Shown: piece after piece, positions 1 through 23,326 of the stretch | How positions within the stretch are numbered: position 1 is the stretch's first letter | Layout of the letters: each line of letters starts with the position of its first letter | Source of the DNA: Nitrospirota bacterium | GTDB taxonomy: Bacteria > Nitrospirota > UBA9217 | DNA: 64,000 bases | Assembly: GCA_963796285.1 (NCBI GenBank) | Contig: CAWCKW010000006.1 | Location: 96,001-160,000, forward strand | Direction: 5' to 3' | Notes under the pieces: model-generated | What the model was told of the DNA's origin: nothing | What the model saw: the letters and a program-made list of their open reading frames with translations, nothing else | The model's database searches: none | Made by a program: the position numbers and the translations under genes

Positions 1-2
1 AC

Positions 3-242
3 ACGATCGTTGTAGCCCTGGATACGGAGTGTGCCATGGTGAAGAAGATGCTCGAGGACATCGCGGTCCTTGACCGGTTCGCCCCGCTCACCGGGTTCCA
101 GAACAATCCCGTGTACCTCTCCGCGGCAAAGCGCCTCAAGCATGTGGCCTGTCCTGTGCCATCAGGCATTTTGAAGACGCTCGAGGTCGAAGCGGGCTTG
201 AATGTTGTGAAGGATGCAACCATCACGTTCGATAAGAAATAG
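3..242 (+). CDS. DUF6951-like small protein, 5' truncated by window edge
   Basis: Open frame TIVVALDTEC...HVACPVPSGILKTLEVEAGL; the CPVP-G-K--EV-AGL motif resembles DUF6951. Confidence 0.55.
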   Translation, partial: TIVVALDTECAMVKKMLEDIAVLDRFAPLTGFQNNPVYLSAAKRLKHVACPVPSGILKTLEVEAGLNVVKDATITFDKK

Positions 243-361
243 ACCTTCTCCAGCTAGTGAAGTTGGGTATTGACCAAAAACCCTTTTATGGTCTGAACAG
301 TACGTCAACGGATCGGTTATTTGCCCGATATGGTACAATAGGACAAGAACAAAGGGCGACC

Positions 362-1042
362 ATGGAAAAACTTCTCATCGTTGCCGTGTATGCAGTGTAC
401 GCGGCATTCTGGCTGCGGTTCTTGGGGCATGCCCTCGTGTGGTGGAAAGCCACGCAGCGGTTCATGGAACCCATTGCTCCCCGGACACGGGCGAAGGCCT
501 GTGCGCTCACGGCCACTGATGTGGTGTTCTTCAACAGGCTCTTCTGGGTGAACCCAGGGCTTTGGTTCGGTGAATGGCTCTTTCACGCCACCTTGACGCT
601 TGTGTTCCTGCGCCACCTCAGGTTTGTCCTGGACCCGGTGCCGGCCTGTATCTGGTGGGTACAGACGCCAGGGCTGATCGCGGGCTATCTTCTGCCCGTG
701 TCACTCGGATACATCCTGATCATCCGGCTGCTCACCAACCAGGAGAAGTATGCTGCTCCTGGGAACGTTTTTCTCCTCGGTCTGGTGCTCGTCATCAGCT
801 GCGTCGGTCTTCTCATGCAGGCGCTGTTCAAACCCGACCTCGTCGGCGTGAAGCTGTTCATTCTCAGCTTTACCGGCTTTACTCCGGCGGCCGTACCTCA
901 TAGCCTTTTGTTCGTACTGCATTTCAGCCTCGTTCTGGTCCTGGTCCCCTTCCTGCCCACGCACATCTTCACGGCCCCGCTGGTGATGATGGAGGCCAGG
1001 AAGCGGGAGCAAGCGCTTCGCCTGGTGATCCATGAAGAATGA
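362..1042 (+). CDS. NarI/HdrE/DsrM-like diheme cytochrome b membrane subunit
   Basis: About 5 TM helices; His pairs WLFH...LRH and VLH...PTH; coupled to downstream Fe-S gene. Confidence 0.7.
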   Translation: MEKLLIVAVYAVYAAFWLRFLGHALVWWKATQRFMEPIAPRTRAKACALTATDVVFFNRLFWVNPGLWFGEWLFHATLTLVFLRHLRFVLDPVPACIWWVQTPGLIAGYLLPVSLGYILIIRLLTNQEKYAAPGNVFLLGLVLVISCVGLLMQALFKPDLVGVKLFILSFTGFTPAAVPHSLLFVLHFSLVLVLVPFLPTHIFTAPLVMMEARKREQALRLVIHEE

Positions 1043-2235
1043 CCGGTCCTTCACTGAAGAGCTTTCATCCAGACAGGTCCTCGAGATCGACGCCTGCACG
1101 CAGTGCGGCGAGTGCCTGAAACACTGCCCGGTGCAGGACGTGACGGGCAACCCCGCGGTCTCGCCGCCCGAAAAGATCCGCATGTTCCGCGAGTTCATCC
1201 GCGCAACCGACGGGCTCAAGGCAAAGCTCTTCGGCCCGGGCGAGGTGGACCGGAAACTGCTCGAGGATTTCACGAAGGCCGTGTATGAATGCACCACCTG
1301 CGGCGCGTGCGGTCAGAACTGCCCGGTCGGCATCTTTACGCAGCGGCTCTGGCCCATGCTCAGAAAAGAGATGGTGAAACGCGGCCTCGGGCCGATCGGC
1401 GTCCAGGCTGACCTGCCGAACGCGATCCGAACATTCCGGCAATCCCTATGACAAACCTGCGGCAAACCGGTATGCGCCCTGGTTCCCGGAGCAGGTGAAG
1501 CTCGTGGAGCGTTCAGCGATCGCCTACTACGCCGGGTGCACGGGCGCCTACGAATCACAGCCCATGGTCAGGGGAGACGTGCTCGTACTGAACGCGATCG
1601 GAGAGCCCTTTACCATGCTGCCGCCGGAAGAAGAGGTGTGCTGCGGATTTCCACTCTTCATCACAGGACAGCACGATCTGCTCAAGGAGCTCGTCACGAG
1701 GCTCGTGGAGGGATATACGGCGCGCGGCGTCAAGATGCTGGTCTGCTCCTGTCCCTGCTGCGTGAACATCATGGCCCGGGACTGGCCCCTGATCTACGGC
1801 GCGGCGCTGCCGTTCAAGATACGGCATATCACGCAGTATGTTTCGGAGGCGATCCAGCAGGGCAGACTGCGCGTGAACAAGGAACTGCATGAGTCCGTGA
1901 TCTACCACGATCCCTGTTACCTCAGCAGGGGTGTGGGCGTGATCGAGGAGCCGCGCAGCGTGCTCAAAAGCATCCCCGGAGTCACGCTCCTGGAGTTCGA
2001 GCGGCATGGCCTGAACTCGCGATGCTGCGGTTCCGGCGGCGCGGCCCGCAAGGTCTTTCACGAGAACGCCATCAAGATGGGCAGACAGACCATTGACGAG
2101 GCCGTGGCAAAAAAGGCCGACCGCCTGATCTTGAGCTGCCCCGCCTGTTATGCCAAGGTGAACGAGGCCATGCAGGGTTATGATAAGCAGATCCGCATCA
2201 CGGACATCATGGAGCTGATGAGCGGGTTGATTTGA
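1032..2235 (+). CDS. HdrD/GlpC-like Fe-S protein (2x 4Fe-4S + 2 CCG domains); +1 frameshift near 1434
   Basis: CTQCGECLKHCP, CTTCGACGQNCP, then YYAGC..CCG..CPCC and YHDPC..CCG..CPAC; removing one T at ~1434 joins the ORFs (RTSGNPYDKP). Confidence 0.8.
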
Positions 2236-2344
2236 TAATGAATGCGTCTCGCGCAAAGCCGCAAAGGGCGCAACGAAAATAAAGACGTGAATTATTAGTT
2301 CTTTCTCTGTGTCTTTGCGCGAAAATTGAATTAAGGACTTAATC

Positions 2345-3605
2345 ATGAGCCATTTTTCCATTCAATGCAAAAAGTGCGGTAAGAACCTCGAGAACACCTT
2401 CTGCGCCTTCTGCGAACACTGCAAGGACGCGCTCCTCGTGACGAATTATCACGGCACCCGTTTTGCGGAACAGGGGACTGAGGGAATCTGGAGGTTCAAT
2501 TGGCTTCCCGTCCATGGTTCGCGATTCTCCCAGCCGGGTCCGCTGGTGTATCGTTCGCAGCGTCTTGCCGAGCATCTTGGCCTGGAGAATCTTTACATTG
2601 CTTTCAACGGGTACTGGCCCGAGAAAGGGGTGTTCCTTGAGACGTGCACGTTCAAGGAGTTCGAGGCCGCCGTGGTGCTTCAGAACGCCCGGGAGAACGG
2701 CATTGAAGGCCTGATCGTCGCATCCGCCGGGAACACGGCGCGGGCCTTCTCGCACCTTTCTTCGGTGACGGGATTTCCCGTCGTCATTGTCGTACCGCGG
2801 ATGTGCCTCACGGAGATGTGGTACCTCGAACAATCGTCCACAGTGCCTACTCTCGCGGTGGGGGACGGCGATTACGCGGACTCTATCGATGTCGCGAAGA
2901 AGATCGCGCTCATCACGGGGTTCCCGTTCGAAGGCGGGGTGAAGAACATTGCCAAGCGAGACGGCCTCGGCATCGTGATGCTCGAAGCGGTTTCGAAGAT
3001 AGGAAAACTGCCGGACCACTACGTTCAGGCCGTGGGAAGCGGCACCGGCGCTATCGGCGCGTGGGAGATGGCCGAGAGGTTCATTAAGGACGGCAGGTTC
3101 GGCTCTCGCTTGCCGATCCTCCATCTCGGACAGAACCTCCCTTTTGCGCCGATGCTTCATGCATGGGACAAGGGCAGCCGCGCGCTGTTCCCCGAAGACC
3201 TGAATCCGGAGCTGATCGCGCAAATCACTACCCGCGTGCTCTCGACCCGCTATCCCGCATATTCGGTTCAAGGGGGATGTGTTCGATGCGCTCGCGGCAA
3301 CCAGCGGAAAGATGTACGGCATTGAGAATGACGCCGTGTATGCCGGGATGGAACTATTTCTGAAGACCGAAGGCATCGACATCGTTCCCGCCTCGGGCGT
3401 GGCCGTTGCCGTGCTCGGCGACGCCGTGCGGAAAGGCGCGATCAAAAAGAACGAGACAGTCCTTTTGAACATCACAGGCGGAGGAGAAGCGCGGCTGAGA
3501 CAGGTTAAGAAGACCTATGCCGTGGAGCCGAAGTTTATCTCTAAAAACGCGACAGACAAGGACATCGAGGAGCTTTTGTGCCACACCCTGAAGAAGATCT
3601 CATAG
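2345..3605 (+). CDS. Cysteate synthase (PLP, threonine-synthase-like); +1 frameshift near 3278
   Basis: LYIAFNGYWPE, TCTFKEFEA, ASAGNTARAF, EGGVKNIAKRDGLG, YVQAVGSGTGAIGAWE, LLNITGGG; removing one base gives QGGVFDAL. Confidence 0.85.
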
Positions 3606-4715
3606 CCATACTCAAGAAGCACTCGGTGGATTTCACCGCTTCCCTTCCCTGCGAGAAGATCAAGACCCTTCTCGAGATGATTGGCCAGCAGTTCACGCAC
3701 CTGCCATTGACCCGCGAAGAGGAAGGGGTGGGCATCTGCGCCGGTGCAGCGCTCTCGGGAAGACGACCGGCCATGTTCGTTCAAAGCTCGGGCATCGGGA
3801 ACATGCTCAACGCGCTCCTGTCCCTCACGCAGTTCTATGAGCTCCCGCTCGCGATCTTCGTGAGCCAGCGGGGCGATCTACAAAGAGAAGATCGAAGCCC
3901 AGTTCCCCATGGGCCAACGGCTCCCCGGCATACTCTCCGGCGCAGGCATCGCCTATACCGAGATAAAAAGCAGCCAGGATATCAGCAAAGTGGACCAGGA
4001 GCTTGCGGAAGTGTTCGGCAAGAATAGAATTCACGCGTTCCTGATGAGCCCTGCGATATGGGAAGGGTCGGAATGCGGAGTTCGGAGCGCAGCATGCGGA
4101 ACAAGGACATCAACTGCAAAGGAACCTGCGTCAAGGCCCATGCCTGGTGTATCAAGGCCGACGTTGACACGATTCGACATCATCAAGATCCTCGCGCCAT
4201 ACCTTGAGGGCAAGGCAGTCGTGAGCAATCTCGGATGGCCTTCCAAGGAACTGTTTGCCATCAAGCATCAACCATCGAACTTCTACATGCTCGGCAGCAT
4301 GGGCATGGCAACGCCCATCGGCCTGGGCATGGCGCTCACCTCATCGAAAGAGATCATCGTCATCGACGGCGACGGAAGCCTGCTCATGAACCCCGGCACG
4401 CTCGCAACAGCAGCTTACGCTGCTCCGCGCAATCTGACCATCATCGCGATCGACAACGGCGCCTACGGCTCCACGGGAAACCAGCCGACGCTTGCGGCAT
4501 CATGCGTTGATCTCGAAGCCGTCGCGCAAGGGTTCGGGTTCAGGAACACGGTGAAGGTTGCGACCGAAGAGCAGATTGTGGAAGTGATGAAGAAACAGCG
4601 GAAGGGGCCGCGTTTTATTCATGTCCTGGCGATTCCGGGGAACAAGGACATCCCGAATATTCCGATCCCTCATATGGAGATCAAACAACGGGTGCAGGAG
4701 TTTCTAAGAACGTGA
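3578..4715 (+). CDS. comDE: Sulfopyruvate decarboxylase, fused alpha/beta; +1 frameshift near 3875
   Basis: Alpha motifs SLPCEK, LTREEEGVGICAGA, QSSGIGN; beta motifs NFYMLGSMG, DGDGSLLMN, DNGAYGSTGNQPT; repaired junction SQRGIYKEKIEAQ. Confidence 0.82.
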
Positions 4716-5230
4716 TCTGCTTACCATTAATACAACGGGGCATTCATCACCGGAAAGAGGATGAGGATACAACTCGAAATATTACTCGCCCTTTTAACTG
4801 GTTTTTGCTTTGTTCACGTACAAGGTTGCACTGCAGGCCTGTCGAAAATGCTGCGAACTTCTTGTTGAAAGGTACATCGAATGCGCAGGTCAAACCATGA
4901 TTTTACTCAGCATGCATCTCACAGGTGAGAGGAAGGTCTTACCTTGGGTTTTGAGTTATCTTGAGGCCGATCCCGATCTCTTTGCCACAGCAGACACTTT
5001 AGGCTACCTTCTCTGATTCTCTTGAAGGCTTGCACACCGTATCTTGCCTAAGGCCGATGAAAACGTGTTACCTCTGCCTCAAAACCCAAGGTAATTCTAT
5101 AAATCTGCAGATGTTTTGTTATAAAGTTCTCAATTATAGCATTGAGGATATTAAATGAAATCATTAATCGCATCAACATCGCTTATTTAAACTGCAAGGT
5201 TGCCTGTCATTTGCAGCCAATTTTTGTTCC

Positions 5231-5547
5231 TTATACCTTCTCTGCAGCAGCCTGCTTATTACGCATAGTAGATGGAACGGAGACTGCAACTCCCGCCACC
5301 GTGCCCGAAGCCCGCCGACCACGAGGCAGACCGCTGCTGCGCAGGCGATCCCGACCACGATCCCCATCACGATTATTGCCCGCGCTATGAGGGTCGGCTC
5401 AACTGTCCCGCCCATCAGTTTCTGGAGCAGGATCAGCGTCCCGAAGCTGCCGAAGTAGAACCCCGGCATGATCCCGAATACCAGAAACACCACCCCCCCT
5501 ATTGATGCTCCGATCTTCATTCCTGTTTTGACTGTCTCGTTCTTCAT
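5231..5547 (-). CDS. Small Gly-rich membrane protein, paralog of 48919..49230; one-base deletion near 5307
   Basis: Same protein as 48919 up to VVGGL; the shifted frame gives the homologous tail GTVAGVAVSVPSTMRNKQAAAEKV*. Confidence 0.7.
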
Positions 5548-8571: not shown

Positions 8572-8733
8572 TCCCTTCAAAAGTACATCAAGTCCTGATA
8601 TACTATTACTATATGCTCAACCGCCCGTACTCCTCATTTCCCCTTGGGAAGAATGCCGGAGCAAGGGGGGAGGGCTGAACCTTCCCCAACAAGGGTGAGG
8701 AAGCCCAAGCTAACCGTGAATTACAAAATTACC

Positions 8734-10431
8734 ATGTTAAAAATACCCGGCCTGCAATCCGTTTATCGTGTCGTTCTCTACTACCTCGTGTTCGGCATCG
8801 TCTGGATCGTCCTCTCCGACGGGCTGCTCGCACTGCTCGTCCCGGACCCTCACAGGTTGAACGTTCTCCAGACCTATAAGGGCTGGGCCTTTGTTTTCGT
8901 CAGCTCACTTCTCATCTATTTCACAATTCAGCACGGGCTTCGAGCGCTGGCTCAGACCGAGGCTGACTTGCGCGAGTCAGAAGAAAAGTATCGCACCTTA
9001 ATCGAAACCGATAACGACGCTGTCTTCATCATTGACGCGGAAACAGGGATCATCCTTGATGCCAATAAAAAAGCCGACGACCTCCTCGGAATGACCCATG
9101 AGAAGATCATTGGAATGCACCAGAAGGCGATCCATCCCGAGGAAGACTCGGACCAGTGCGCCCGTATCCTGAAAGATTCGCTCACGAACGGCGGCGTTGT
9201 CGCTGGTGATATCTGCGTGTTCCATAGAAGCGGGAGAAAAATACCCGTTGAGGTCAGCGTGACCATCGTCGAGCGGGGCGGAAAACGGATCATTCAGAGC
9301 TTTTTCCGGGACATCACCAAACGGAAACATGCCGAGGACCTGGCAAAAGAACGGCTCCAGCGTCTCGCTGCCCTTCATGCCATCGACATGATCATCAGTT
9401 CGAGCCTCGATCTCAGGGTCACGCTCTCTGAGTTTCTCGACCTCGTGATCTCACAACTGCGCGTGGACGCCGCTGATGTTCTGCTCCTGAATCCCCATAC
9501 TCAGACCCTTGAATTCGCTGCGGGCCGCGGGTTCCATACGGACGGTATCCAGCGATCACGAGTCCGCCTGGGTGAAGGCATTGCGGGTCTGGCCGCCCTG
9601 GAACACCGGAGCATCAGTATCCCGAACCTCCTTGACCCCGCAAACGGTTTCCTTCGCACGCCTCTGCTCGAGACCGAAAGCTTTATCGCCTATGCCGTGG
9701 TGCCTCTCATGGCAAAAGGCCATATAACTGCTGTGCTTGAGGTCTATCACCGTGCACCCCTGGTCCTGGACACGGAATGGCTGAACTTCCTCGAAGCCCT
9801 CGCTTCCCAGGCCGCCATTGCCATAGACAACGCCACGCTCTTCAATGAGCTCCAGCGGTCAACGATCGAGATCACGGTGGCGTACGATGCCACCCTCGAA
9901 GGCTGGGCCCGCGCCCTCGATCTCCGCAACCAGGCAACCGAGCAACACACCCAGCGGGTGACGGAAATGACGATGCGCCTCGCGCGAACCATGGGGGTCG
10001 GCGAAAAAGAGCTGGTGCACATTCGTCGCGGCGCACTCTTGCACGACGTCGGAAAGCTCGGCATTCCCGACAGTATCCTGCTCAAACCCGGTCCTCTTAC
10101 GGATAACGAGTGGGCCTTGATGCGCAAGCACCCCGAGTACGCCTTCGACATGCTCCAGCCCATAGCGTATCTCCGGCCTGCGCTGGACATCCCGTATGCG
10201 CACCATGAAAAATGGGACGGCAGCGGTTATCCCCGCTCATTAAAGGGAGAGCAGATCCCCCTCGCGGCCAGGATCTTCACAGTCGCGGACGTGTGGGACG
10301 CCATGACCGATGAGAAGCGGCCGTATAGAAGAGCCCTGTCAAAAGATAAAGTTCGAGAATATATTCGCTCCCTAGCAGGGACCCAGCTTGATCCAACAGT
10401 CGTAGATGCGTTTTTGAAGATGGCGTGGTAA
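8734..10431 (+). CDS. Membrane-anchored PAS-GAF-HD-GYP cyclic dinucleotide phosphodiesterase
   Basis: 2 TM, PAS, GAF, LLHDVGK, HHEKWDGSGYP, VADVWDAM. Confidence 0.9.
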   Translation: MLKIPGLQSVYRVVLYYLVFGIVWIVLSDGLLALLVPDPHRLNVLQTYKGWAFVFVSSLLIYFTIQHGLRALAQTEADLRESEEKYRTLIETDNDAVFIIDAETGIILDANKKADDLLGMTHEKIIGMHQKAIHPEEDSDQCARILKDSLTNGGVVAGDICVFHRSGRKIPVEVSVTIVERGGKRIIQSFFRDITKRKHAEDLAKERLQRLAALHAIDMIISSSLDLRVTLSEFLDLVISQLRVDAADVLLLNPHTQTLEFAAGRGFHTDGIQRSRVRLGEGIAGLAALEHRSISIPNLLDPANGFLRTPLLETESFIAYAVVPLMAKGHITAVLEVYHRAPLVLDTEWLNFLEALASQAAIAIDNATLFNELQRSTIEITVAYDATLEGWARALDLRNQATEQHTQRVTEMTMRLARTMGVGEKELVHIRRGALLHDVGKLGIPDSILLKPGPLTDNEWALMRKHPEYAFDMLQPIAYLRPALDIPYAHHEKWDGSGYPRSLKGEQIPLAARIFTVADVWDAMTDEKRPYRRALSKDKVREYIRSLAGTQLDPTVVDAFLKMAW

Positions 10432-11059: not shown

Positions 11060-12757
11060 TCAGGATGCAACCACAGACGAACTCGATGACGCTCCGATGA
11101 GCTTCCGCACGTAGAGCTGCTGAACGATCGAGAGTGCGTTGCTCAGGGTGATGTAGAGCAAGAGGCCCGCCGGGAGCCAGGCGAACATGAAGATCATGGC
11201 AATGTTCACATACATCATGATCTTTGCCTGCTGCGGGTCGGGTGTGGTGGACGTCATCTTCATTGTCAGGATCATGCTCACACCCATCAGGACCGGCAGG
11301 ATATAGAACGGATCGTAGACCGACAGGTCTTTGATCCAGATCGGGATAAAAGGGGCCTGACGCAGTTCGATGGACACGGACAGGACATTGTAGAGCGCCA
11401 CAAAGAACGGAAGCTGCAGGAGCATCGGCAGGCATCCGCCCACCGGATTCACCTTGTGTTCCTTATAGAGCTTCATCATCTCCGTGTTCATCTTCGAGGG
11501 GTCCTTTTTATACTTCTCCCGGAGCGCCATGATCTGAGGCTGGATCTTCTTCATCTCCTCCATGGATGTCGCGCTTTTCAGCGACGGATAGAACAGGAGC
11601 AGCCGCACCACGATAGTGAGCAGGATGATCGCGATGCCGTAATTTCTCGTGAGGGCGTAGAATTGTTTCATGAGCCAGAACATGGGCTTGGCGAGGACGC
11701 CGAACCAGCCATAGTCCACCATCTGCTCCAAACCGCGTCCGAAAGCTTGCAGGAGCGTAAAACTCTTTGGCCCCGCATAGAGCGTGAACGTGCGCGCTTC
11801 GGGTTTCTCTTTTACCGTCAACGCGGAAGTGAGGAGATCGCCGATTTCTTTGGGTGCCGCGGTCAGCTTGCCCGTCACGAGTCCCGGGTTCCCGGAGATG
11901 AACGTAGCGGTAAAATATTTATCCGACTGGCCGAACCAGTCGATGACGCCGGCGTATTGCACTTCACCCTTGATACTCTCTAGTTTCTCAAACACTGATT
12001 TACCGTCTGTCTGGGCAACCAGGCCCACGCGGCCCTTTGCAGCCGTGCTGGTCTTGTCCTCGAGACCGAAATCCGTTCCCAGGGATAACGTATAGCCGTC
12101 CAGTTTGCTCGTATTGACCTCGATGTCGACCTTGTACGCGTCGTTGTGAAAGGTCAACCGTTTTTCGATCGAGATGCCCGCGGGGCCGCTGTACGTAAGT
12201 ACCAGCGTTTCCGACGGCCTGTCCTTGCCGAGGTGTATTGCGTCGACGTTTGCCCGATACTCCACCCGGGAAAGATTGTACAGGTCCTTATCAAGGGGTG
12301 CCAGGGTCAGGGGCATCACCATGTCCCTGCGGTCCATCCCCTCGTAAACAGGCAGGAGCTGCACATTGCCAAACACCTTCTTCGGCTTCTCTTCCTTCGG
12401 CGCCTGTCCCATGAGCTTCTTGATCATGACGCCAACTCCGACCGGGGTCTTGTCCGACTCCCGATAGTGCTTGAGCTCCCAACCCGTGAGCACTCCTCCG
12501 GCCGTGTTCACCGTGGCCCGCACCAGATCGGTCTCGATAATGATGTCATGTCCCACGGCTGCCGGCTCGATCCTCGCAGCCACAACCGAGGCGCGAACCG
12601 GTTTCTGCGTCTGCATTGGCGTTTCCTGCGATACTTCCTGTTTCGATGTTTCGGGAATGATCGGTTTTTCCGGCGGCTTCGGCGCAAAGAAGCGCATATA
12701 GCCCACGAACACGAGCAAAGAAAGGGAAAGTGCTAATATGAATCTTCGTGTTTCCAT
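11060..12757 (-). CDS. yidC: Membrane protein insertase YidC
   Basis: VDYGWF, NYGIAIILLT, GGCLPMLLQLP; synteny. Confidence 0.97.
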   Translation of the reverse strand: METRRFILALSLSLLVFVGYMRFFAPKPPEKPIIPETSKQEVSQETPMQTQKPVRASVVAARIEPAAVGHDIIIETDLVRATVNTAGGVLTGWELKHYRESDKTPVGVGVMIKKLMGQAPKEEKPKKVFGNVQLLPVYEGMDRRDMVMPLTLAPLDKDLYNLSRVEYRANVDAIHLGKDRPSETLVLTYSGPAGISIEKRLTFHNDAYKVDIEVNTSKLDGYTLSLGTDFGLEDKTSTAAKGRVGLVAQTDGKSVFEKLESIKGEVQYAGVIDWFGQSDKYFTATFISGNPGLVTGKLTAAPKEIGDLLTSALTVKEKPEARTFTLYAGPKSFTLLQAFGRGLEQMVDYGWFGVLAKPMFWLMKQFYALTRNYGIAIILLTIVVRLLLFYPSLKSATSMEEMKKIQPQIMALREKYKKDPSKMNTEMMKLYKEHKVNPVGGCLPMLLQLPFFVALYNVLSVSIELRQAPFIPIWIKDLSVYDPFYILPVLMGVSMILTMKMTSTTPDPQQAKIMMYVNIAMIFMFAWLPAGLLLYITLSNALSIVQQLYVRKLIGASSSSSVVAS

Positions 12758-12770
12758 GGATCCTCCGAAC

Positions 12771-12986
12771 TTATTTTACGGGGTCGTATCCGCCTGGATG
12801 AAAGGGATGGCATTTTAAAACACGCACGACCGTCATCCAGATGGCTTTGAACATGCCCTTTTTCTGAAAGGCCTCGACAGCATATTCTGAGCACGTCGGT
12901 GTGAACCTGCAGGCTGGCGGCAACATCGGCGAGATAGTGCGTTTGTACAGTCTCAGGAGAGCAATAATAAAAGTATTCACATTCAC
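12771..12986 (-). CDS. yidD: Membrane protein insertion efficiency factor YidD
   Basis: [24 protein letters not shown]. Confidence 0.96.
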
Positions 12987-13351
12987 GTCGCTTTGTTTTC
13001 CTGCGTGCGGTTGCGCAGCGCGGTCCGCTGGAGAATGGTTTCAACGGCCTTCATGATCTTTTCATACTCTGCAGTGATCAGTTCCCGCCGCGCCACGAAC
13101 ACCAGGTCAAATCCGATCGTCTGGTCCCGCAGTGTCTTCATAATGCAGTCCCGTATCTGCCGTCTGACCCGGTTTCTCGTTACTGCGTTCGCCAGTTTTT
13201 TACTAACGGCTATACCGATCCTGAAGTTACCCTTATCGTTCTTGATATAAAAAAGAGAAAGACCGTCAACCGACAGTCTTTTGCCCTTCATGGTAGCTGT
13301 AAACTCTGAATTTTTTCGAATCCGCTCGCTCTTTCGATATGCGTACGGCAT
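12983..13351 (-). CDS. rnpA: Ribonuclease P protein component
   Basis: [18 protein letters not shown]; synteny. Confidence 0.95.
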
Positions 13352-13372
13352 CGCGTCTTTCCCGGCCCGGAA

Positions 13373-13510
13373 TTATACGGAGAGACGCTTTCTTCCCTTG
13401 GCCCTGCGGCGCTTGATAACATTCCTGCCCGTAGCTGTGCTCATCCGCTTCCTGAAGCCCTGTGCCCGTTTTTGCTTAAGATTGCTTTTTTGTGCTGTTG
13501 TTTCCGACAT
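13373..13510 (-). CDS. rpmH: 50S ribosomal protein L34
   Basis: Translated by hand: ...[28 protein letters not shown]. Confidence 0.95.
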
Positions 13511-13548
13511 CGCCTTGCTCCTTCGGTGGTATTTATGAACAGGCGGGT

Positions 13549-13576
13549 ATTATAAGCGAAAAAGTAAATATGTCAA
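13549..13576 (-). promoter_or_regulatory. sigma70 promoter of rpmH operon
   Basis: TTGACA-N16-TATAAT. Confidence 0.7.
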
Positions 13577-13947
13577 GCGAAAAACCATAAGTAAACAGGG
13601 TTTTGACTTAGCACGGCTTTTTTGGTACAGTGCGGTACTCGAAAGATCGCTGTGCTGGAGCTCCTGGATGTCGTGGACCATATCATTCCAGCAAAAAACA
13701 CAACACTGGATATCTCCCACCTTCATCTGCACGGTGAAAAGCAACACGCCCGTGATCCGGGAGCCGCACAAATGCGAAGCAATCGGCTGTCCAACCTCGA
13801 CCGGATGCCGGAGGACCAACTGACGATCGCATCAAGAAAAAAGTTTGGCGCTGTTACGGAAAAAACTCAACCGATGAGGAATGTTGTATGCAGGGACAGG
13901 CTCTATGCTTGTTGTTGCCGTGTCCCCCGATCCTGTATCGACTCAAT

Positions 13948-14625
13948 ATGAAAACACCCTACACATTCCCTGTTGACGCCATTCTCCTGCTCGGCCCGAC
14001 CGGTGTTGGCAAGAGCCCGCTAGGTGATGTCATTGCGCAGAACGGTCTGTTCGGAAGAACGTGCCGGCATCTCGATTTCGGCTCGGAGTTGCGCGGTGCT
14101 ATTTCAGGAGGCCAGCGGTCTGCTGCTTACTCTACAGCGGAGCTTGACTTTATTCACGGCGTTCTTGAGCGCGGTCTCCTGCTCGAGAACGAGCACTTTC
14201 TCCTCGCAAAAAAGATCATCTCTCTGTACTTGGACCGGGTTGGGTTCGCTCAACACGAGGTACTCGTCCTGAACGGGATCCCGCGCCATGCGGGGCAGGC
14301 AATCGATATCGCGACGCTTGCTGCGATCCACACAGTGGTTATTCTTGACTGTTCTGCAGATGATGTTGTTTGCCGCATTCGGGAGAATGTCGGTGGAGAC
14401 AGGACGGACCGGGTCGATGATAACATGGAACTGGTCGATAAAAAACTATCGATATTCCGTGAAAGGACCGAGCCGCTTATCGATCACTACACACAGCGTG
14501 GATGTGCTTTGTATCGGATCAGCGTCTCGGCTGACATGACGCCATCAGAAGCCTATTGCAAGGTATCAGCGCTTGCCGCCGCTTATCCACCAGTCACTCT
14601 TGTCGCTGAACCACCACAACGATGA
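13948..14625 (+). CDS. Adenylate kinase-like NMP kinase
   Basis: GPTGVGKS P-loop, HLDFGSELR, LNGIPR, RTDRVDDN, TEPLIDHY. Confidence 0.75.
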   Translation: MKTPYTFPVDAILLLGPTGVGKSPLGDVIAQNGLFGRTCRHLDFGSELRGAISGGQRSAAYSTAELDFIHGVLERGLLLENEHFLLAKKIISLYLDRVGFAQHEVLVLNGIPRHAGQAIDIATLAAIHTVVILDCSADDVVCRIRENVGGDRTDRVDDNMELVDKKLSIFRERTEPLIDHYTQRGCALYRISVSADMTPSEAYCKVSALAAAYPPVTLVAEPPQR

Positions 14626-15153
14626 GTCGGTTTCCAGGATCGTCTTCGCGAGTTCCCTTGCTGAGTCCGTTTGCAGTCGTTTGAGCGAGAACTCAAGCCA
14701 CTCGTCTGCATACTTGTTTCCGAGGTCTTTGTATTCCTTGAGCGCGAGGATCATCTCCAGCTGGTCTGCATCGCGTGCCAATCGCGCCTCATCGGTCTTT
14801 CCTTCGATGAACTCCTGGATCAACTCCCTTATCTCGCTGCCGAACGGCAATGTCTGCGCCAGATCTTCGACTGCCTTGTTCTCATTTGCCTCGACATACT
14901 TTTTATTCACATAGTTGAGGTCGCCTGTCCGCGCTTCCGGCAGATCGTGGAACAGGCACATCTTGATCATCCGGTCTACATTAACCCCCGTGGCAAGTTT
15001 CCCGAGCGCGTAGCCGATGTAGGTCGTGCGAAATATGTGCTCAGCCACTGACTCAGCACCAGTGCCGAGGAATTGAAATCCGCTCCGGGGCGTGCGCTTC
15101 AGCATGCCTGCTTCGAATAGAAAATTTGCAATATTCTTCATATGGCGTTTCAT
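14566..15153 (-). CDS. HD-domain hydrolase (YfbR/HDDC2-like)
   Basis: LKRTPRSG, ESVAEH, HDLPEARTGD, DADQLE. Confidence 0.88.
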   Translation of the reverse strand: MKRHMKNIANFLFEAGMLKRTPRSGFQFLGTGAESVAEHIFRTTYIGYALGKLATGVNVDRMIKMCLFHDLPEARTGDLNYVNKKYVEANENKAVEDLAQTLPFGSEIRELIQEFIEGKTDEARLARDADQLEMILALKEYKDLGNKYADEWLEFSLKRLQTDSARELAKTILETDSSLWWFSDKSDWWISGGKR

Positions 15154-15239
15154 ATCACGAATTGAGTCATCTGTAAATAGTATCCTGCGGGATGCATGTT
15201 ACCTTTGTGCATAAAGCGCGGCCACAATTAATTCGCTGC

Positions 15240-15449
15240 TCAGATAACATTAATTTTCCGGCCTTGAAATTCAACAATTTGCCCTTTCCGCATCTTACAT
15301 CGCTTACGGAATTCCACACTTCCATTAACCTTAACAGAGCCCGCTGCGATCGCGGTTTTTGCCATACCCCCGCTATCGCACAACCCCATGACTTTCAAGA
15401 GGTCATGCAACTCGATAAACTCTTTGTGCCCCAGTTTAAACTCGTCCAC
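15240..15449 (-). CDS. S4-domain RNA-binding protein (YbcJ/YaaA)
   Basis: IELHDLLKVMGLCDSGGMAK, VKVNG, RKRCK; GTG start with AAGGA RBS. Confidence 0.85.
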   Translation of the reverse strand: MDEFKLGHKEFIELHDLLKVMGLCDSGGMAKTAIAAGSVKVNGSVEFRKRCKMRKGQIVEFQGRKINVI

Positions 15450-15539
15450 TATTATCCTTAAATATTGTTCGGACATATGACAGTCTTGATAGGCCTGCAT
15501 ACCCATTGTTCGGGTTTGCTGGAGAATTAAGAATGACAT

Positions 15540-15656
15540 TTGTACTACTGATCAGATCGAATGCTACCATGTTCGTGGCAAGCCGGAGTGCTGCTGCGGT
15601 ACGTTCAATGGCATCGTAGGAATGGGTGATAACAAACACAATCTCATTATTTTCAT
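15540..15656 (-). pseudogene. Possible DsrE-family N-terminal remnant
   Basis: GGAGG RBS, then IVFVITHSYDAIERTAAALRLATNMVAFD; frameshifted and truncated. Confidence 0.3.
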
Positions 15657-15789
15657 GTTCTCCTCCTGAAGATCACGCGGTGGAGTTATTAACGACTGGA
15701 CATAAAGATACCACGCGAGAGGTACAATTAACAAATGATTTTTGTATTTTGTTGTGTAACGCGAGATGATGTTATTCAGATGGCTTGTT

Positions 15790-16015
15790 TATCTTAATTA
15801 CTATTAATATATATTAAATAAATTAGTAGTAGTAGTAGTAGGGCATGTGGATATGTGAGCAGAGAAGAAAAGGCGTTGAGAAATAAAACAAAGCACGACC
15901 GGATAAAGGAGGTTCAGCGATGTGCGTAGAGGGGGATAGTGGTGTTGATAACTGGATGCGAGGAACTATACACAGGTTATCAAAAATCCATACACAGGCG
16001 AATGTGGGTAGTTTT
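15790..16015. other. oriC: Replication origin unwinding region (AT-rich DUE, DnaA-trios, DnaA boxes)
   Basis: AT tract, (TAG)6 at 15824-15841, GGCA, TGTGGATAT at 15846-15854, further degenerate boxes TGTTGATAA, CTATACACA, TTATCAAAA. Confidence 0.8.
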
Positions 16016-16369
16016 TTAACCCGGCGGCCAGGCAAACCTGCGGCCGGATAATAGATGGAGATGGATGTGGAACACGGACTGTCCTGCATCAAGGCCGTTG
16101 TTGATGACCATCCGATAACCGCCCTTATCGAGACCTTTCTTCGAAGCAATGGTTTTGGCAATAAAGAAGAGATGGCCAATGAGTTCACGATCTGTAATGG
16201 CGATGCTGTGGATGTCAGCGATATGTTTTTTTGGCACAATGAGCGTGTGAACAGGCGCCTGGGGATTGAGGTCCTCGAAGGCGACTGCGTACTCGTCCTC
16301 ATGGAGAATCGTTGCCGGGATTTTTTTCTCGATGATCTTGCAAAAAATACAGTGCGGGTCGGGACTCAT
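16016..16369 (-). CDS. hinT: Histidine triad nucleotide-binding protein
   Basis: [24 protein letters not shown]. Confidence 0.93.
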
Positions 16370-16710
16370 TTTGTATCTCCCGGTAGGTTCTCAGAAAAAC
16401 TTCTAAAAAAACAAGAGCGTTCTCCGGTATGGCAGGCAGGACCGGTCTGTTCGACTTTAATCAGAAGTGTGTCCTGATCACAATCGTATAGAATATCTTT
16501 AACGCGCTGGATATTGCCGGAGGTCTCGCCCTTTTGCCAGAACTTCTGTCGAGAACGGCTCCAGTACCAGGTGAAACCGGATTCGACCGTCCTCTGAAGC
16601 GAGGCAGCGTTCATATACGCGACCATCAATATCTCGTTAGTTTTCCAGTCCTGGATTACCGCGGGGATCAGGCCTTTCTCATCATATTTAAGGTTATCAG
16701 GAATCTGCAT
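16366..16710 (-). CDS. hisI: Phosphoribosyl-AMP cyclohydrolase
   Basis: [27 protein letters not shown]. Confidence 0.95.
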
Positions 16711-16770
16711 GATTGGAAAGGTTTTATCATAAATCAGAAAAAATGTCCAGAGGAGAGGAGCATAGACAAT

Positions 16771-16802
16771 AAGAAACCGGTCCCATGGGAGACCGGTTTC
16801 TT
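16771..16802 (-). terminator. Intrinsic terminator after tusA-dsrE
   Basis: AAGAAACCGGTC...GACCGGTTTCTT hairpin. Confidence 0.65.
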
Positions 16803-16850
16803 AACCTGAAACATGTTCAGGAGCGTCGCGCAGGTGATAAATAAATCCTG

Positions 16851-17324
16851 TTAAACGAAAAGATTGATCTGTGCGTCGATAGCTGAATCCAGCCAGGCAG
16901 CGGCGCCACCGAACTCAACCCCATCGACGATGTCCGACTGCTTCACGCCCATCACGTCCATGGTCATCTGGCAAGCGATGAGCTTTACTCCCGCCTCCTT
17001 GGCAAGATCAAGAAGCTGGCCGATAGAAGCAACACCGTGCTTATTGAAGTTGGATTTCATCATTGCAGTTGCCATGGCCTCCATGCCGGGAAGCGACCCG
17101 ATGAGTGTGGGGATAGGCACCGGCATCGGCATCGCAGGGTTTCCGATGGGCGAGATCTTGAGCTTATCGGCATTGCCCTTTTTTATGATGTCGAGCCCGA
17201 AGAACGTAAAAAATATCGTCACATCAACGTCCATGGATGCGGCCGTAGTAGCGAGGATCAGGGGCGGATAAGCCATGTCCAGTGAGCCCTTGGATGCAAT
17301 GATCGTCATTTTTTTATTTGCCAT
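16851..17324 (-). CDS. DsrE/DsrF/DsrH-like (DsrE2-type) sulfur transfer protein
   Basis: GSLDMAYPPLILA, FFTFFGL, ACQMTMDVMG. Confidence 0.88.
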   Translation of the reverse strand: MANKKMTIIASKGSLDMAYPPLILATTAASMDVDVTIFFTFFGLDIIKKGNADKLKISPIGNPAMPMPVPIPTLIGSLPGMEAMATAMMKSNFNKHGVASIGQLLDLAKEAGVKLIACQMTMDVMGVKQSDIVDGVEFGGAAAWLDSAIDAQINLFV

Positions 17325-17334
17325 GGTATTCTCC

Positions 17335-17577
17335 TTATGCCGTTTTTTTGATGTAGAACGTGAATGTGCCCGAACCTTCTTCGACCTTCACGATTTCATT
17401 GCCCGTTCTTTTTGCCCACGATGCCATATCATTCTTCGAACCGGCGTCGGTGGACTCTACTTTGAGGATCTGATCCTTGGAGAGCGCTTCCACTGCTTTC
17501 TTTGTTTTCAATATCGGCAACGGGCAGCTCATGCCTTTTGCATCCAAAAACTGATCAAACTTTATATCTGCTGACAT
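17335..17577 (-). CDS. tusA: Sulfurtransferase TusA family
   Basis: LDAKGMSCPLP motif. Confidence 0.88.
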   Translation of the reverse strand: MSADIKFDQFLDAKGMSCPLPILKTKKAVEALSKDQILKVESTDAGSKNDMASWAKRTGNEIVKVEEGSGTFTFYIKKTA

Positions 17578-17825
17578 ATCCTTCACCTCCAAAAAAATAA
17601 ACAATAATATCTACCATTGAAACACCTGTTTTATTATACAGCCGGTGGGAGCAAAGTCAAGCGTTTTTTCAATAGTACACACAAGAACTTTGCTGGGAGA
17701 TCGATGTGTTTTTTAACATACCATGCATGCGATCTAGAGTTTTGAGTATGTAGATGATTGGCGGGTATGGTTTGTAGGATTAAATGACTGGAAACGGAAA
17801 GCAGATGTCAATGGTTAAAAATACC

Positions 17826-17854
17826 TTGCCAGAAGACCTGTGTTCTGGTATAGT
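17826..17854 (+). promoter_or_regulatory. Putative sigma70 promoter of dnaA
   Basis: TTGCCA-N17-TATAGT. Confidence 0.45.
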
Positions 17855-18013
17855 CTGCCTCGCTGGTAACCAGCGTCAGAACAGATTAGCAAGATGCATG
17901 CTAAGCCTACTCATGCAGCAATACGTAAAATCTCATAATAATAGGGCAACAAAAAGCGGACAATAAGCCTCCGCGTGATAGCGTAACCTATCGAAAATTA
18001 AACCAAAAACTCA

Positions 18014-18033
18014 TTATCCACACCTGTGGATAA
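18014..18033. promoter_or_regulatory. Two perfect inverted DnaA boxes upstream of dnaA
   Basis: TTATCCACA-CC-TGTGGATAA. Confidence 0.9.
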
Positions 18034-18080
18034 GCATGTTTGTAACCAGAGTTGTTTTTCCAGATATTTTTGGGGTATGT

Positions 18081-19412
18081 ATGGATCAGGAACGCGTTTG
18101 GGAAGAGATACTGTTGCTCATAGAAAACCGTATGTCCAAGCAGGGTTACGACACCTGGTTCAGCCAGTCAAAGCTCCTTTCGATAGACGGCAACAAGATA
18201 CAGATCGAGGTCCCAAGCAAGTTCCATAGGGACTGGATAAAAGAGCATCACTGGAGCACTCTTTCTGATGTCATCAAGGAAGTAACCAAGCGGGAAGATG
18301 TGGAGATCGATTTCTTTGTCCAGCCACAGTTGGCGGCAAAAAAAACCGTTCGCCTGACCAAAGAAGAAAAAAAAGAGGGCCGTGAAGACAAGATAGGGCT
18401 CTTTGAAAAAAAGTATACCTTTGCCAATTTCGTCGTAGGTCCAAGCAATCAATTTGCACACGCTGCGGCCAAGGCCGTGGCGGACGCGCCTGGCCGATCG
18501 TACAATCCCCTCTTTATTTACAGCGGCGTCGGACTGGGCAAGACCCATCTCGTAAACGCCATCGGCCACCACATTCAGAGCAAATCTCCGCGAACAAAAG
18601 TTGCATACCTCTCATCCGAACAATTCACAAACGAACTCATTAACAAAATGAGCCATCAGCGGATGGAGGAGTTCCGGCAGAAGTATCGGAACATGGACGT
18701 CCTGCTCATAGATGATATCCAGTTCATTGCAGGCAAAGAGCGGACCCAGGAGGAGTTCTTTCATACCTTCAATACCCTCTATGAAGCACAGAAGCAGATA
18801 GTGCTCACCAGCGACCGCCAGCCCAAGGAAATTCCCGATATCGAGGAGCGGCTCCGTTCTCGATTCGAGTCCGGACTGATTTCGGACATTCAGCTGCCGG
18901 ACCTCGAGACTCGGATAGCAATCCTGAAGAAAAAGGCGGAGTTCTGGAGCATCCGACTGCCCGATGATGTTGCGGAATTTCTGGCCTCGATGATGAAAAG
19001 CAACATCCGGGAGCTTGAAGGCGGCCTGGTGAAGCTCGGTGCGGTCTCGTCGCTCACGAACACCGAGATAACGCAGGAGCTTGCCAAGAATGAGCTCAAG
19101 TATCTTCTTGACAGCAGGGAACGGGTTATCACCAACGAACTTGTGCAGAAAATCGTGTCCGAAGCGTTCGGCGTGAAAATCTCCGATCTCAAGTCGAAAC
19201 GCCGCACCAGGGCCGTGGTTCTGCCTCGCCAGGTCGCAATGTATCTCTGCAGAACGCTTGCCGGTTCATCGCTGCCTGATATAGGACTTTTCTTTGGCGG
19301 CAAGGACCACAGCACTGTCATTCACGCGTGCAAAGTAATTGAGGAAAAAAAAGAAAAAGACCCCGAGTTAAAAGCCAAGCTGGAGATGTTAATTAAACAG
19401 TTAAGACATTGA
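18081..19412 (+). CDS. dnaA: Chromosomal replication initiator DnaA
   Basis: YNPLFIYSGVGLGKTHL, DDIQF, GGKDHSTVIH. Confidence 0.98.
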   Translation: MDQERVWEEILLLIENRMSKQGYDTWFSQSKLLSIDGNKIQIEVPSKFHRDWIKEHHWSTLSDVIKEVTKREDVEIDFFVQPQLAAKKTVRLTKEEKKEGREDKIGLFEKKYTFANFVVGPSNQFAHAAAKAVADAPGRSYNPLFIYSGVGLGKTHLVNAIGHHIQSKSPRTKVAYLSSEQFTNELINKMSHQRMEEFRQKYRNMDVLLIDDIQFIAGKERTQEEFFHTFNTLYEAQKQIVLTSDRQPKEIPDIEERLRSRFESGLISDIQLPDLETRIAILKKKAEFWSIRLPDDVAEFLASMMKSNIRELEGGLVKLGAVSSLTNTEITQELAKNELKYLLDSRERVITNELVQKIVSEAFGVKISDLKSKRRTRAVVLPRQVAMYLCRTLAGSSLPDIGLFFGGKDHSTVIHACKVIEEKKEKDPELKAKLEMLIKQLRH

Positions 19413-19498
19413 AATATAAAGGCAATAAACCATAAAAAAATATTGCTATTTGCTGGGGATTCTGATAGTATTCGTGGACGTGACAGGAGGCTTCCCTG

Positions 19499-20614
19499 AT
19501 GAAACTGAAAATTAAAAAAGAGGAAATTCTGAAGGGGTTGCAGAGGATCCAGGGTGTCGTGGAAAAGAAGAACACCATGCCTATTCTCTCGAACATGCTC
19601 CTTATTGCAGATGACCGCGGTGTGGAGATAATCGCTACGGACCTTGAGATCGGGCTGCGCGGGCGTTATGAGGCGGCAGTCGATAAGCCCGGCGCCGTCA
19701 CCGTGTCAGCGAAGAAAATGTATGAGATCGTGCGTGAGCTACCAGCCGATGACATACAGATCAACGTCGAAGAAAATAACTGGGTCAGGATACAAACGGG
19801 CCATTCACAGTTCAAGCTCGTCGGGTTGCCAAGGGACGAGTATCCTGCGCTCCCTGATGTCGCGGAAGAAGGTATGATCGTCATCGAAGGCGATACGCTT
19901 CGCGACATGATCAAGAAGACGCTCTATGCCGTGGGCGAAAACGATGCGCGGTATGTGCTGAACGGCCTCTTTGTCCACATGACCCAGACCAAAGGCGGCC
20001 TCAACATCAGGATGGTCGGCACCGACGGACACCGACTTTCGATGATAGATCGTGTGGTTGATGCCAAGCACAAGGAAGAGGGCATCATCATCCCCAAAAA
20101 GGCGATGGTAGAGCTTCGGCGGCTCCTTGAGGAAGATGCTCCCAAGACCGAGCTTAGGCTTGGGTTCAGCAAGAACCACGCGCTGTTTAAGCGTGACGGC
20201 CTGGTCATGGTATCAAAGCTCATCGACGGCAACTATCCCAACTACCTCCAGGTTGTGCCTGCGAAGAGTACGAAGAAGGTCACCGTGTCCAAAGACGCGT
20301 TCACCCATGCGGTGAAGCGCGTTTCGATCCTGTCCAAGGAAAAGACCAACGCCGTAAAACTGCAGCTTGAATCGGGCAGGCTCATTCTTTCCACGAACAA
20401 TCCGGAAGTGGGTGAGGCGAATGAAGAGCTGGTGGTGGATTACAAGGGCGAGGCGATTGCGATCGGGTTCAATTCACGCTATCTCATGGATGTGCTTATG
20501 GCCATGGACCGCGAGACCATCTCTCTTGAGCTGAGCGATGCGCTGAGCCCGTGCCTGATCACGGAAGAGGGCGACGAAAATTATAAGTGCGTTGTGATGC
20601 CGATGAGGGTGTAA
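19499..20614 (+). CDS. dnaN: DNA polymerase III beta clamp
   Basis: ATDLEI, TDGHRL, VVMPMRV. Confidence 0.98.
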   Translation: MKLKIKKEEILKGLQRIQGVVEKKNTMPILSNMLLIADDRGVEIIATDLEIGLRGRYEAAVDKPGAVTVSAKKMYEIVRELPADDIQINVEENNWVRIQTGHSQFKLVGLPRDEYPALPDVAEEGMIVIEGDTLRDMIKKTLYAVGENDARYVLNGLFVHMTQTKGGLNIRMVGTDGHRLSMIDRVVDAKHKEEGIIIPKKAMVELRRLLEEDAPKTELRLGFSKNHALFKRDGLVMVSKLIDGNYPNYLQVVPAKSTKKVTVSKDAFTHAVKRVSILSKEKTNAVKLQLESGRLILSTNNPEVGEANEELVVDYKGEAIAIGFNSRYLMDVLMAMDRETISLELSDALSPCLITEEGDENYKCVVMPMRV

Positions 20615-20721
20615 GAAAAAAGCCCAACGCCAAACCCAAAATAAAATTCTAAAATACCAATAACCGATATCAGCGATGTTTGGCATTCGCGATTGTCTAT
20701 TGGGGCTTATTTGAGATTTGA

Positions 20722-23205
<2,484 letters not shown>

Positions 23206-23326
23206 ACAGAGTCGGGAGTCCAACGTGTGTTGTGCGTCTAAAGAACTCAGGACACAGCGCTCATCACTTGACTTTCAACTCTTTAGACCCCAGAGAACTC
23301 AATAGTTTCGAAAGACTGATACCATC

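Follow-up and report, generated by a model that had tools for sequence, protein, structure and literature searches.

To our knowledge, coenzyme M (CoM) has been treated as a signature of archaeal methane and alkane metabolism, with a single unrelated bacterial route in aerobic alkene oxidisers. Cysteate synthase (CS), a pyridoxal phosphate (PLP) enzyme, forms L-cysteate from phosphoserine and sulfite, and ComDE, a thiamine pyrophosphate (TPP) enzyme, converts sulfopyruvate to sulfoacetaldehyde and CO2. The type II CoM route of the Methanosarcinales and Methanomicrobiales, as described in PMC11844431 and PMC9457059, is encoded as cs-comDE-MMP16 (MA3297–MA3299 in Methanosarcina acetivorans). Here we describe a CS and ComDE gene pair at the end of a methyltransferase and heterodisulfide reductase (Hdr)-like operon in a Nitrospirota bacterium. 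The stretch analysed, hereafter the window, comprises 64,000 nucleotides (nt) of assembly GCA_963796285.1 (G000:C6:96001-160000, in which G000 is the source genome, 96% complete, and C6 a 216-kb contig); the 20 kb directly upstream (C6:76001-96000) is referred to as L002.

As in the type II route, CS is directly followed by a fused ComDE, the archaeal equivalog models are passed and the aminotransferase lies outside the cluster. The present locus differs in that no MMP16 or COG1900 gene was found beside the pair or in the genome or class, that the host is a sulfate-reducing bacterium without Mcr, and that the pair ends a methyltransferase and Hdr-like operon. The MtaA, MtbA and MtsA systems of methylotrophic methanogens share with it the UroD fold, the His-Cys-Cys zinc site, a DxHxxG corrinoid protein and an adjoining ATP-dependent activase, whereas the present cluster lacks an MT1 of the MtaB or MttB type, includes an MtrH-like pterin methyltransferase, has an activase of the bacterial RACo type and stays below the MtaA and MtbA equivalog cut-offs. 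HdrDE of Methanosarcina, DsrMK of sulfate reducers and TfrB of Methanothermobacter offer the closest parallels to the redox pair, a four-His cytochrome b translationally coupled to a protein with two ferredoxin clusters and two CCG motifs, but the pair described here lies below the curated cut-offs, is tandemly duplicated in some loci and is missing in G049, the nearest genome of the same genus.

Among bacterial systems, the type 1 mlp clusters of non-methanogenic anaerobes, described in preprint PMC10418091, likewise combine several SCMT-like His-Cys-Cys methyltransferases with a corrinoid protein and a RACE or RACo activase. Compared by composition, they have no folate methyltransferase and are mostly from Firmicutes, whereas CS, ComDE, HdrD and cytochrome b, MtrH and DUF6951 are added here; the words Nitrospir-, cysteate, sulfonate and MtrH do not occur in that text. 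The Xcb route is also a bacterial source of CoM, but, according to PMC9457059, it starts from phosphoenolpyruvate with unrelated enzymes, belongs to aerobic alkene oxidisers and is used for epoxide carboxylation. The mec (dichloromethane) cassette, as described in 10.1101/2021.08.30.458270, is alike in composition only. A literature search, which did not extend to preprint supplements, found no report of cysteate synthase, ComDE or CoM use in connection with Nitrospirota or Thermodesulfovibrionia, and co-mentions of Thermodesulfovibrionia and coenzyme M stood in unrelated contexts.

A cluster of about 12 genes ending in CS and ComDE

Gene identities were assigned from a listing of open reading frames (ORFs) and from Pfam and NCBIfam hidden Markov model (HMM) scans with curated cut-offs, and the orthologues in a related locus, L012, served as the intact reference for frames and HMM scores (G numbers denote genomes and L numbers loci). 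An earlier note, made from the window sequence alone, had described five co-oriented genes in positions 3..4715, and all five are present there on the + strand (Table 1). The CS and fused ComDE that it had named pass their curated models: the first piece of CS alone scores 368.3 bits on TIGR03844 (cut-off 324.9) and the second 85.9, and the L012 CS scores 474.4 bits, with threonine synthase models at no more than 89 bits. In the window, ComDE scores 231.3 bits on TIGR03846 (cut-off 221.5) and 132.9 + 17.8 bits on TIGR03845 (cut-off 147.95), the latter split by a frame break; in L012 both the alpha (TIGR03845, 181.1 bits) and the beta (TIGR03846, 226.2 bits) models are passed. A grouping of the decarboxylase with phosphonopyruvate decarboxylases, which the note had raised as a point against its reading, was not seen at the HMM level, where TIGR03297 gave the L012 ComDE 209.2 bits against a cut-off of 312.5. 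Judged by curated HMM cut-offs, CS and ComDE are true members of the archaeal families.

A scan for CS relatives, with one genome per species, yielded 452 stretches, the best 80 loci of which were compared. These loci are the nearest relatives of the query (77 carry Nitrospirota-type names, and the others are Betaproteobacteria, Rokuibacteriota and 'Bacterium BMS3Bbin05'), and the gene counts below, obtained by tblastn of G000 proteins, are valid for that clade only. The cluster runs in the order MtaA-like 1 (MtaA1), AhpD-like protein, MtrH-like protein, MtaA-like 2 (MtaA2), corrinoid protein, Fe-S protein, RACo, DUF6951, cytochrome b, HdrD, CS and ComDE. Among the 51 loci with at least 9.9 kb of sequence upstream of CS, 50 contain MtaA1, MtrH, MtaA2, the corrinoid protein, RACo and DUF6951; the Fe-S protein is present in 49, cytochrome b in 47 and HdrD in 49–50. 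Of 69 related loci that extend 2.7 kb or more upstream of CS, 66–67 repeat the arrangement seen in the window, and of 70 that extend 1.3 kb or more downstream, 69 have ComDE after CS. In the window itself, there is an 11-nt overlap between the cytochrome b and HdrD genes and a 28-nt overlap between CS and ComDE. The gene arrangement is not due to chance.

Broader sampling links the two ends of the cluster. In a class sample of 64 genomes including G000 (one family, 19 genera), CS occurs in 38 and MtaA2 in 39 genomes, with both in 36 and neither in 23. All five discordant genomes are cut by contig ends or only 65–74% complete: the two with CS alone are 65–68% complete and have CS near a contig start, and in the three with MtaA2 alone the contig ends 1.3–4.3 kb after that gene. 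In an even sample of 401 Nitrospirota genomes across the phylum, 72 contain CS, 74 DUF6951 and 73 a close orthologue of HdrD, and 67 of the 79 genomes with CS or DUF6951 have both; all three were found in 0 of the 76 genomes of the largest family in that sample.

Upstream of the window, over 8 kb, all genes lie on the same strand as the window genes. Methyltransferases, which the earlier note had suggested looking for there, were found, namely two MtaA-type zinc-thiol enzymes and an MtrH-like enzyme, together with a corrinoid protein and RACo. MtaA2 aligns over its whole length with MtaA from Methanosarcina mazei (4AY7, 162 bits), including the HICG and PGC motifs, and the zinc triad H-x-C...C of 4AY7 (HICG, PGCDI) is invariant in 33 MtaA1 and 46 MtaA2 orthologues. 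According to Kountz and Balskus (PMC10418091), His-Cys-Cys marks the S- and Se-methyltransferases of the UroD family, and O-demethylases swap a Cys for a carboxylate. The 228-residue Fe-S protein is predicted to have the cobalamin-binding fold of reductive dehalogenases (RdhA), QueG and MMACHC (Foldseek E values from 2.5e-8, with a model of moderate confidence at pLDDT 69). The AhpD-like protein shows faint matches to selenoprotein-linked AhpD families (E values 1e-4 to 3e-6).

The cytochrome b, of the two-haem type, whose only family match is DsrM below its cut-off, has four His residues invariant in 58 orthologues and is 64% identical to its L012 orthologue; because relatives align from position 347, its likely start is the ATG at 362. 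The HdrD-like protein contains two 4Fe-4S ferredoxin motifs and two complete CCG motifs, all Cys residues of which are invariant in 37–70 orthologues. The best NCBIfam match of its L012 orthologue is TfrB (181.9 bits, cut-off 385), and DsrK reaches 95.8 bits (cut-off 400).

The DUF6951 gene starts at G000:C6:95928, 72 nt ahead of the window, and encodes 104 residues, the whole gene scoring 97.4 bits on PF22263. Cys11, Cys35, His72 and Cys75 are invariant in an alignment of 53 orthologues. Among 14 control genomes, PF22263 found a match only in M. acetivorans. A search with the AlphaFold2 (AF2) model (pLDDT 95) returned nothing in Foldseek at E values of 0.001 or below; the top rows were weak matches to IscU, SufU, SufE and CsdE (E values 0.03–0.5), and a VIA structure search gave IscU at a Z score of ~6, tied with lipoate ligase and xanthine-oxidase domains. 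IscU, SufU, SufE and CsdE are Fe-S scaffold and sulfur-acceptor proteins, and the likeness of DUF6951 to IscU and SufE provides weak leads only. Fused forms of DUF6951 were not found among proteins of 183–2000 residues, which is weak evidence, and complex prediction of the HdrD-like protein with DUF6951 scored 0.00 in two runs, which is evidence neither way.

Table 1 Features of the cluster and its surroundings (window coordinates, or L002 coordinates where so marked; bits are given against the curated cut-off).
Feature	Position	Strand	Family match or motif
MtaA-like 1 (MtaA1)	L002:12366-13397	+	TIGR01463 191 vs 235.4, fails
AhpD/CMD-like protein	L002:13473-13991	+	conserved C-S-P-R-C motif
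MtrH-family methyltransferase	L002:14206-15156	+	NF002142 320 vs 287
MtaA-like 2 (MtaA2)	L002:15236-16267	+	TIGR01463 252.1 vs 235.4; NF004889 268.2 vs 244
Corrinoid protein	L002:16239-16961	+	DxHxxG
228-residue Fe-S protein	L002:16958-17644 (G000:C6:92958-93644)	+	two 4Fe-4S motifs, QueG/RdhA-like
RACo, corrinoid activase	L002:17742-19763	+	
DUF6951, 3′ part	1..242 (ORF 3-242, last 79 codons)	+	PF22263 68.5 vs 27
Cytochrome b, membrane, NarI/DsrM/HdrE type	257/362..1042	+	NCBIfam DsrM 50.1 vs 300
HdrD-like Fe-S protein	1032..2235 (pieces 1032-1451, 1495-2235)	+	Pfam Fer4_8, CCG
Cysteate synthase (CS)	2345..3605 (pieces 2345-3325, 3279-3605)	+	TIGR03844
Fused sulfopyruvate decarboxylase ComDE	3578..4715 (pieces 3578-4027, 3909-4715)	+	TIGR03845, TIGR03846
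SsuA-family match, weak	L002:4389-5234 (G000:C6:80389-81234)	-	83.5 vs 163.5
Sigma-54 consensus match	L002:11550-11565	-	perfect match
595-residue ORF	8644-10431		
Origin region (yidC, dnaA, dnaN, gyrB, gyrA)	11063-25816		
Large serine recombinase	37842-39503	-	

Frame breaks in HdrD, CS and ComDE

Relative to L012, HdrD, CS and ComDE each contain one frame change that resembles a one-base insertion, near 1428 in HdrD (between 1427 and 1429), near 3272-3279 in CS and near 3876 in ComDE; CS in the window therefore has no single uninterrupted reading frame. The earlier note had hinted at frameshifts in the cluster; the assembled sequence does contain them, but they are most likely not real. We compared the window over positions 1000-4800 with contigs from three DNA runs (X1, X2 and X3) and one metatranscriptome (RNA-library) run (X19), which represent populations 93–99% alike to the window and not necessarily the same strain. 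At 1429-1431, one letter is left out by all of the covering depth (15.4 of 15.4 in X1, 6.15 of 6.15 in X2, 27.4 of 27.4 in X3 and 10.3 of 10.3 in X19), as it is at 3272-3279 (19.8 of 19.8 in X1 and 11.9 of 11.9 in X3), and the letter at 3876 is left out likewise (19.3 of 19.3 in X1, 11 of 11 in X2 and 20.3 of 20.3 in X3). The X19 contigs, which cover parts of HdrD and CS at 93–97% likeness, come from a relative and may derive from DNA.

Two further features of the assembly bear on the breaks. In G000, dsrA is broken into two pieces that overlap, and the dsrB match runs across a TGA (C13:69167-70310 and 68190-68996), a sign that indel or base errors are scattered through the assembly and reach essential genes; a split CS is also seen in three other assemblies, which have 10 to 50 contigs (G007, G047 and G033). 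Because every covering X1–X3 contig drops the base and dsrA is split in the same way, the breaks are most likely assembly errors, and we regard consensus error as the very probable explanation. In addition, a recombination hot spot in the right-hand part of the cluster may trouble the consensus.

If the three frameshifts were instead real, HdrD, CS and ComDE would be pseudogenes and this part of the cluster dead in this strain. Such an inactivation is suggested by the local density of the breaks, which fall within 2.5 kb and count against a working cluster, while the seven genes upstream of the window and the long housekeeping genes rpoB, rpoC, gyrA, gyrB, mutS2, dnaG and rpoD are unbroken in G000, and by the patchiness of the cluster within the genus, in which CS occurs in 5 of 8 genomes. 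We nevertheless consider it improbable, as the extra base is missing from every covering contig of the three independent DNA runs and, at the first site, also from one contig of the RNA library. Moreover, there is no in-frame stop or deletion, and identity to L012 stays as high after the breaks as before them (88/87% for HdrD, 88/80% for CS and 75/75% for ComDE). In restored frames, the best-supported 40 of 236 base differences to the near-identical contigs comprise 29 synonymous, 9 non-synonymous and 2 intergenic changes, so that 29 of 38 coding differences are synonymous. The comparable damage to dsrA, which is essential for this metabolism, and to dsrB, as well as the CS splits in the three other assemblies, argues in the same direction. 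Among relatives, the reading frame is unbroken for HdrD at 72 of 74 loci, for CS at all 80 and for ComDE at 73 of 75.

Cluster variants and genomic surroundings

Related loci vary around the conserved order. An ORF of ~300–317 residues lies between DUF6951 and cytochrome b in nine loci (L013, L038, L069, L070, L074, L083, L087, L088 and L089), and in both of those scanned (L013 and L087) it is FolD, which ties the cluster to folate-bound C1 units. In L039, L060 and L081, an SsuA-family binding protein is encoded inside the cluster (192–195 bits, cut-off 163.5), with permease and ATPase genes beside it in the two loci scanned (L039 and L081). These in-cluster SsuA-type importers are a second, independent link to aliphatic sulfonate. 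A second pair of NarI-like and HdrD-like genes stands between DUF6951 and HdrD in L039, L046, L050, L052, L060 and L068, and in L050 this second pair is fused into one 679-residue protein.

The two halves of the cluster also differ in divergence. Between G049 and G000, the methyltransferase genes are 92–97% identical with a synonymous divergence (dS) of 0.25–0.58, whereas DUF6951, CS and ComDE are only 63–84% identical with a dS of 0.8–1.9, the jump falling right after RACo. Because identity and dS shift between them, the halves have different histories, and the jump suggests recombination or replacement of the right-hand module. In one genome bin, two full copies of the cluster occur (L028 and L029, on G028:C16 and C40), reflecting either a true duplication or two strains.

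An archaeal contamination or mis-binning of the cluster was considered and rejected, since yidC, dnaA, dnaN, gyrB and gyrA lie ~6–13 kb away on the same 216-kb contig. This origin region is downstream of the cluster, as is the 595-residue ORF, tentatively an HD-GYP or sensor protein, which occupies the same place in 7 of the 80 related loci. Further along, the gene for a large serine recombinase is followed by ORFs without a family match and may mark an integrated element. On the other side, ~7 kb upstream of MtaA1, there is a weak SsuA-family match, and a perfect match to the sigma-54 consensus lies between an NtrC-type regulator and the methyltransferases and faces away from the cluster. A scan for the sigma-54 consensus gave no more matches than expected by chance and nothing useful ahead of CS; promoter and terminator sites in window 1-5300 were not in excess over shuffled sequence, and Rfam found nothing at E values of 0.01 or below on L001 and L002.

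Proposed function and its alternatives

The gene content suggests a pathway in which CS, a general aminotransferase and ComDE would convert phosphoserine and sulfite through cysteate and sulfopyruvate to sulfoacetaldehyde. Class I/II aminotransferases are available, with seven PF00155 genes in G000 and none in the cluster. The genome has dsrAB and AcsB, and sulfite, sulfide and the methyl branch of the Wood–Ljungdahl pathway are therefore at hand. Sulfoacetaldehyde would then be reductively thiolated to CoM or a very close sulfonate thiol, and because no COG1900 gene was found, this step would fall to free sulfide or to an as yet unrecognised enzyme; within the cluster, the candidates for such an enzyme are the IscU/SufE-like DUF6951 and the HdrD-like protein. 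The corrinoid protein, with RACo maintaining its active state, may exchange methyl groups with this thiol, or with a methylated sulfur substrate, through one or both MtaA-type enzymes. The MtrH-like enzyme may link the corrinoid to tetrahydrofolate, and hence to FolD and the Wood–Ljungdahl pathway, and HdrD with cytochrome b may connect the quinone pool with the thiol/disulfide pair, in the manner of HdrDE in Methanosarcina and DsrMK in sulfate reducers.

The earlier note had read the locus as making CoM or a related thiol whose disulfide is recycled at the membrane. The precursor enzymes and methyltransferases of that reading are in place, the CoM synthase and Mcr are not, and CoM as the product and the recycling of its disulfide stay at the level of inference. 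We judge it evenly poised whether CoM or a very close sulfonate thiol is made and used through the cluster, with methyl transfer and HdrD/cytochrome b coupling. A more specific model is tentative and, taken as a whole, doubtful: a Nitrospirota CoM cycle without Mcr or COG1900, in which phosphoserine and respiratory sulfite would be the starting materials of CoM, a new set of enzymes (candidates being the IscU/SufE-like DUF6951 and the HdrD-like protein) would carry out the thiolation, and CoM would have two uses, carrying methyl groups between methylated sulfur compounds and folate and serving as a thiol/disulfide electron shuttle that an HdrDE-like complex couples to menaquinone and sulfate respiration.

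Several observations weigh against CoM. MMP16/ComF, the known CoM synthase, and its relative L-ASST both contain a COG1900 domain, according to PMC11844431; PF01837/COG1900 was found neither in G000 nor in any of the 64 class genomes, and the MMP16 model TIGR03287 gave in G000 only matches to ferredoxin parts, at no more than 29.5 bits (cut-off 364). The thiol-inserting enzyme on which the earlier note had made its reading depend is thus missing in its known form from G000 and the class sample. McrA (TIGR03256) has no match in G000, which leaves no known sink for methyl-CoM. MtaA2 passes the subfamily models and does not reach the MtaA equivalog (244.8 bits, cut-off 400), MtaA1 lies below both the MtaA/CmuA cut-off and that equivalog cut-off of 400, and the HdrD-like protein stays below the cut-off of every curated model, with no HdrD model matched. 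In gene content, the G049 locus (L095, G049:C8:93000-111500) reads RACo-DUF6951-CS-ComDE without cytochrome b and HdrD, and in L079 CS and ComDE stand alone among housekeeping genes. In another Nitrospirota family, f3, loci from G090 and G137 run from the regulator through MtaA1, CMD, MtrH, MtaA2, the corrinoid protein, the Fe-S protein and RACo to DUF6951 and end without CS and ComDE, and CS was found in 0 of 12 sampled f3 genomes, so that a sulfonate made by the cell itself is not strictly required by the core.

CS-ComDE is accordingly a very frequent, non-obligatory addition to the core. DUF6951, by contrast, is to be counted as part of the methyl-transfer core, near which a partner of the HdrD type always seems to lie: G090 has a NarI/HdrD pair, 44% identical, a few kb beyond the regulator, and in G098 and G137 an HdrD, also 44% identical, is encoded similarly far away on the same contig. 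In G090 (L103:6449-9571, - strand), DUF6951 is followed by genes for a radical SAM protein, a SAM-dependent methyltransferase and a B12-binding radical SAM protein.

With no COG1900 in the class and no Mcr in G000, a CoM-like thiol is likely but unproven. According to PMC11844431, which also cites abiotic formation of CoM from sulfoacetaldehyde and sulfide, losing MMP16 is masked in M. acetivorans when sulfide is high, so that a sulfide-producing cell may need no dedicated enzyme.

The core might instead be a demethylase of methyl-S or methyl-Se compounds like the type 1 mlp clusters, transferring methyl groups from dimethylsulfide, methanethiol, methylselenides or the like to tetrahydrofolate without CoM, with CS and ComDE serving another end (taurine, isethionate, sulfoacetate, sulfonolipid or sulfite buffering) and adjoining the core for shared regulation only. 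His-Cys-Cys Mlps with corrinoid and RACE proteins have been proposed to act on methyl-S and methyl-Se compounds, and one was active with selenide, according to PMC10418091. The f3 core without CS and ComDE, the failure to find COG1900 and Mcr, and the faint selenoprotein-linked matches of the AhpD-like protein are all consistent with such a role, and the MtrH-like enzyme and FolD would complete a route to folate that needs no CoM. However, CS-ComDE and the core are linked almost without exception, in 50 of 51 loci and across several families of the phylum, three loci carry sulfonate importers in the cluster, and HdrD/cytochrome b pairs, which act on thiols and disulfides, stand alongside. Furthermore, taurine, isethionate and sulfoacetate are not thiols and offer no substrate for the zinc enzymes or HdrD, and sulfoacetaldehyde acetyltransferase (Xsc) was not found above its cut-off in G000 (best match 347.6 bits, cut-off 676.4). 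We therefore hold a CoM-free demethylase to be possible, with the chances against it.

The same lack of Xsc bears on the breakdown of sulfonates, in which imported cysteate or sulfolactate would be converted through sulfopyruvate to sulfoacetaldehyde by ComDE, sulfite would pass to dissimilatory reduction and HdrD/cytochrome b would serve as the electron link. ComDE homologues act in bacterial sulfolactate degradation; dsrAB is present in the genome, SsuA-type importers occur in three loci, and a TauE/SafE gene lies near CS in L081. Nevertheless, CS is a biosynthetic enzyme that passes its equivalog cut-off, the cluster encodes no desulfonating enzyme and the methyltransferases would be left unexplained, which makes this explanation highly improbable.

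If the cluster does make and use CoM or a very close sulfonate thiol, the range of the CoM cofactor would be wider than has been assumed, the cluster having been found in 72 of the 401 Nitrospirota genomes sampled and in 38 of the 64 genomes of the class. It would also point to a second, COG1900-independent way of inserting the thiol and, in sulfate reducers from peat, soil and sediment, to a methyl-sulfur metabolism that has gone unrecognised, and CoM-related marker genes in metagenomes could no longer be read as signals of methanogens.

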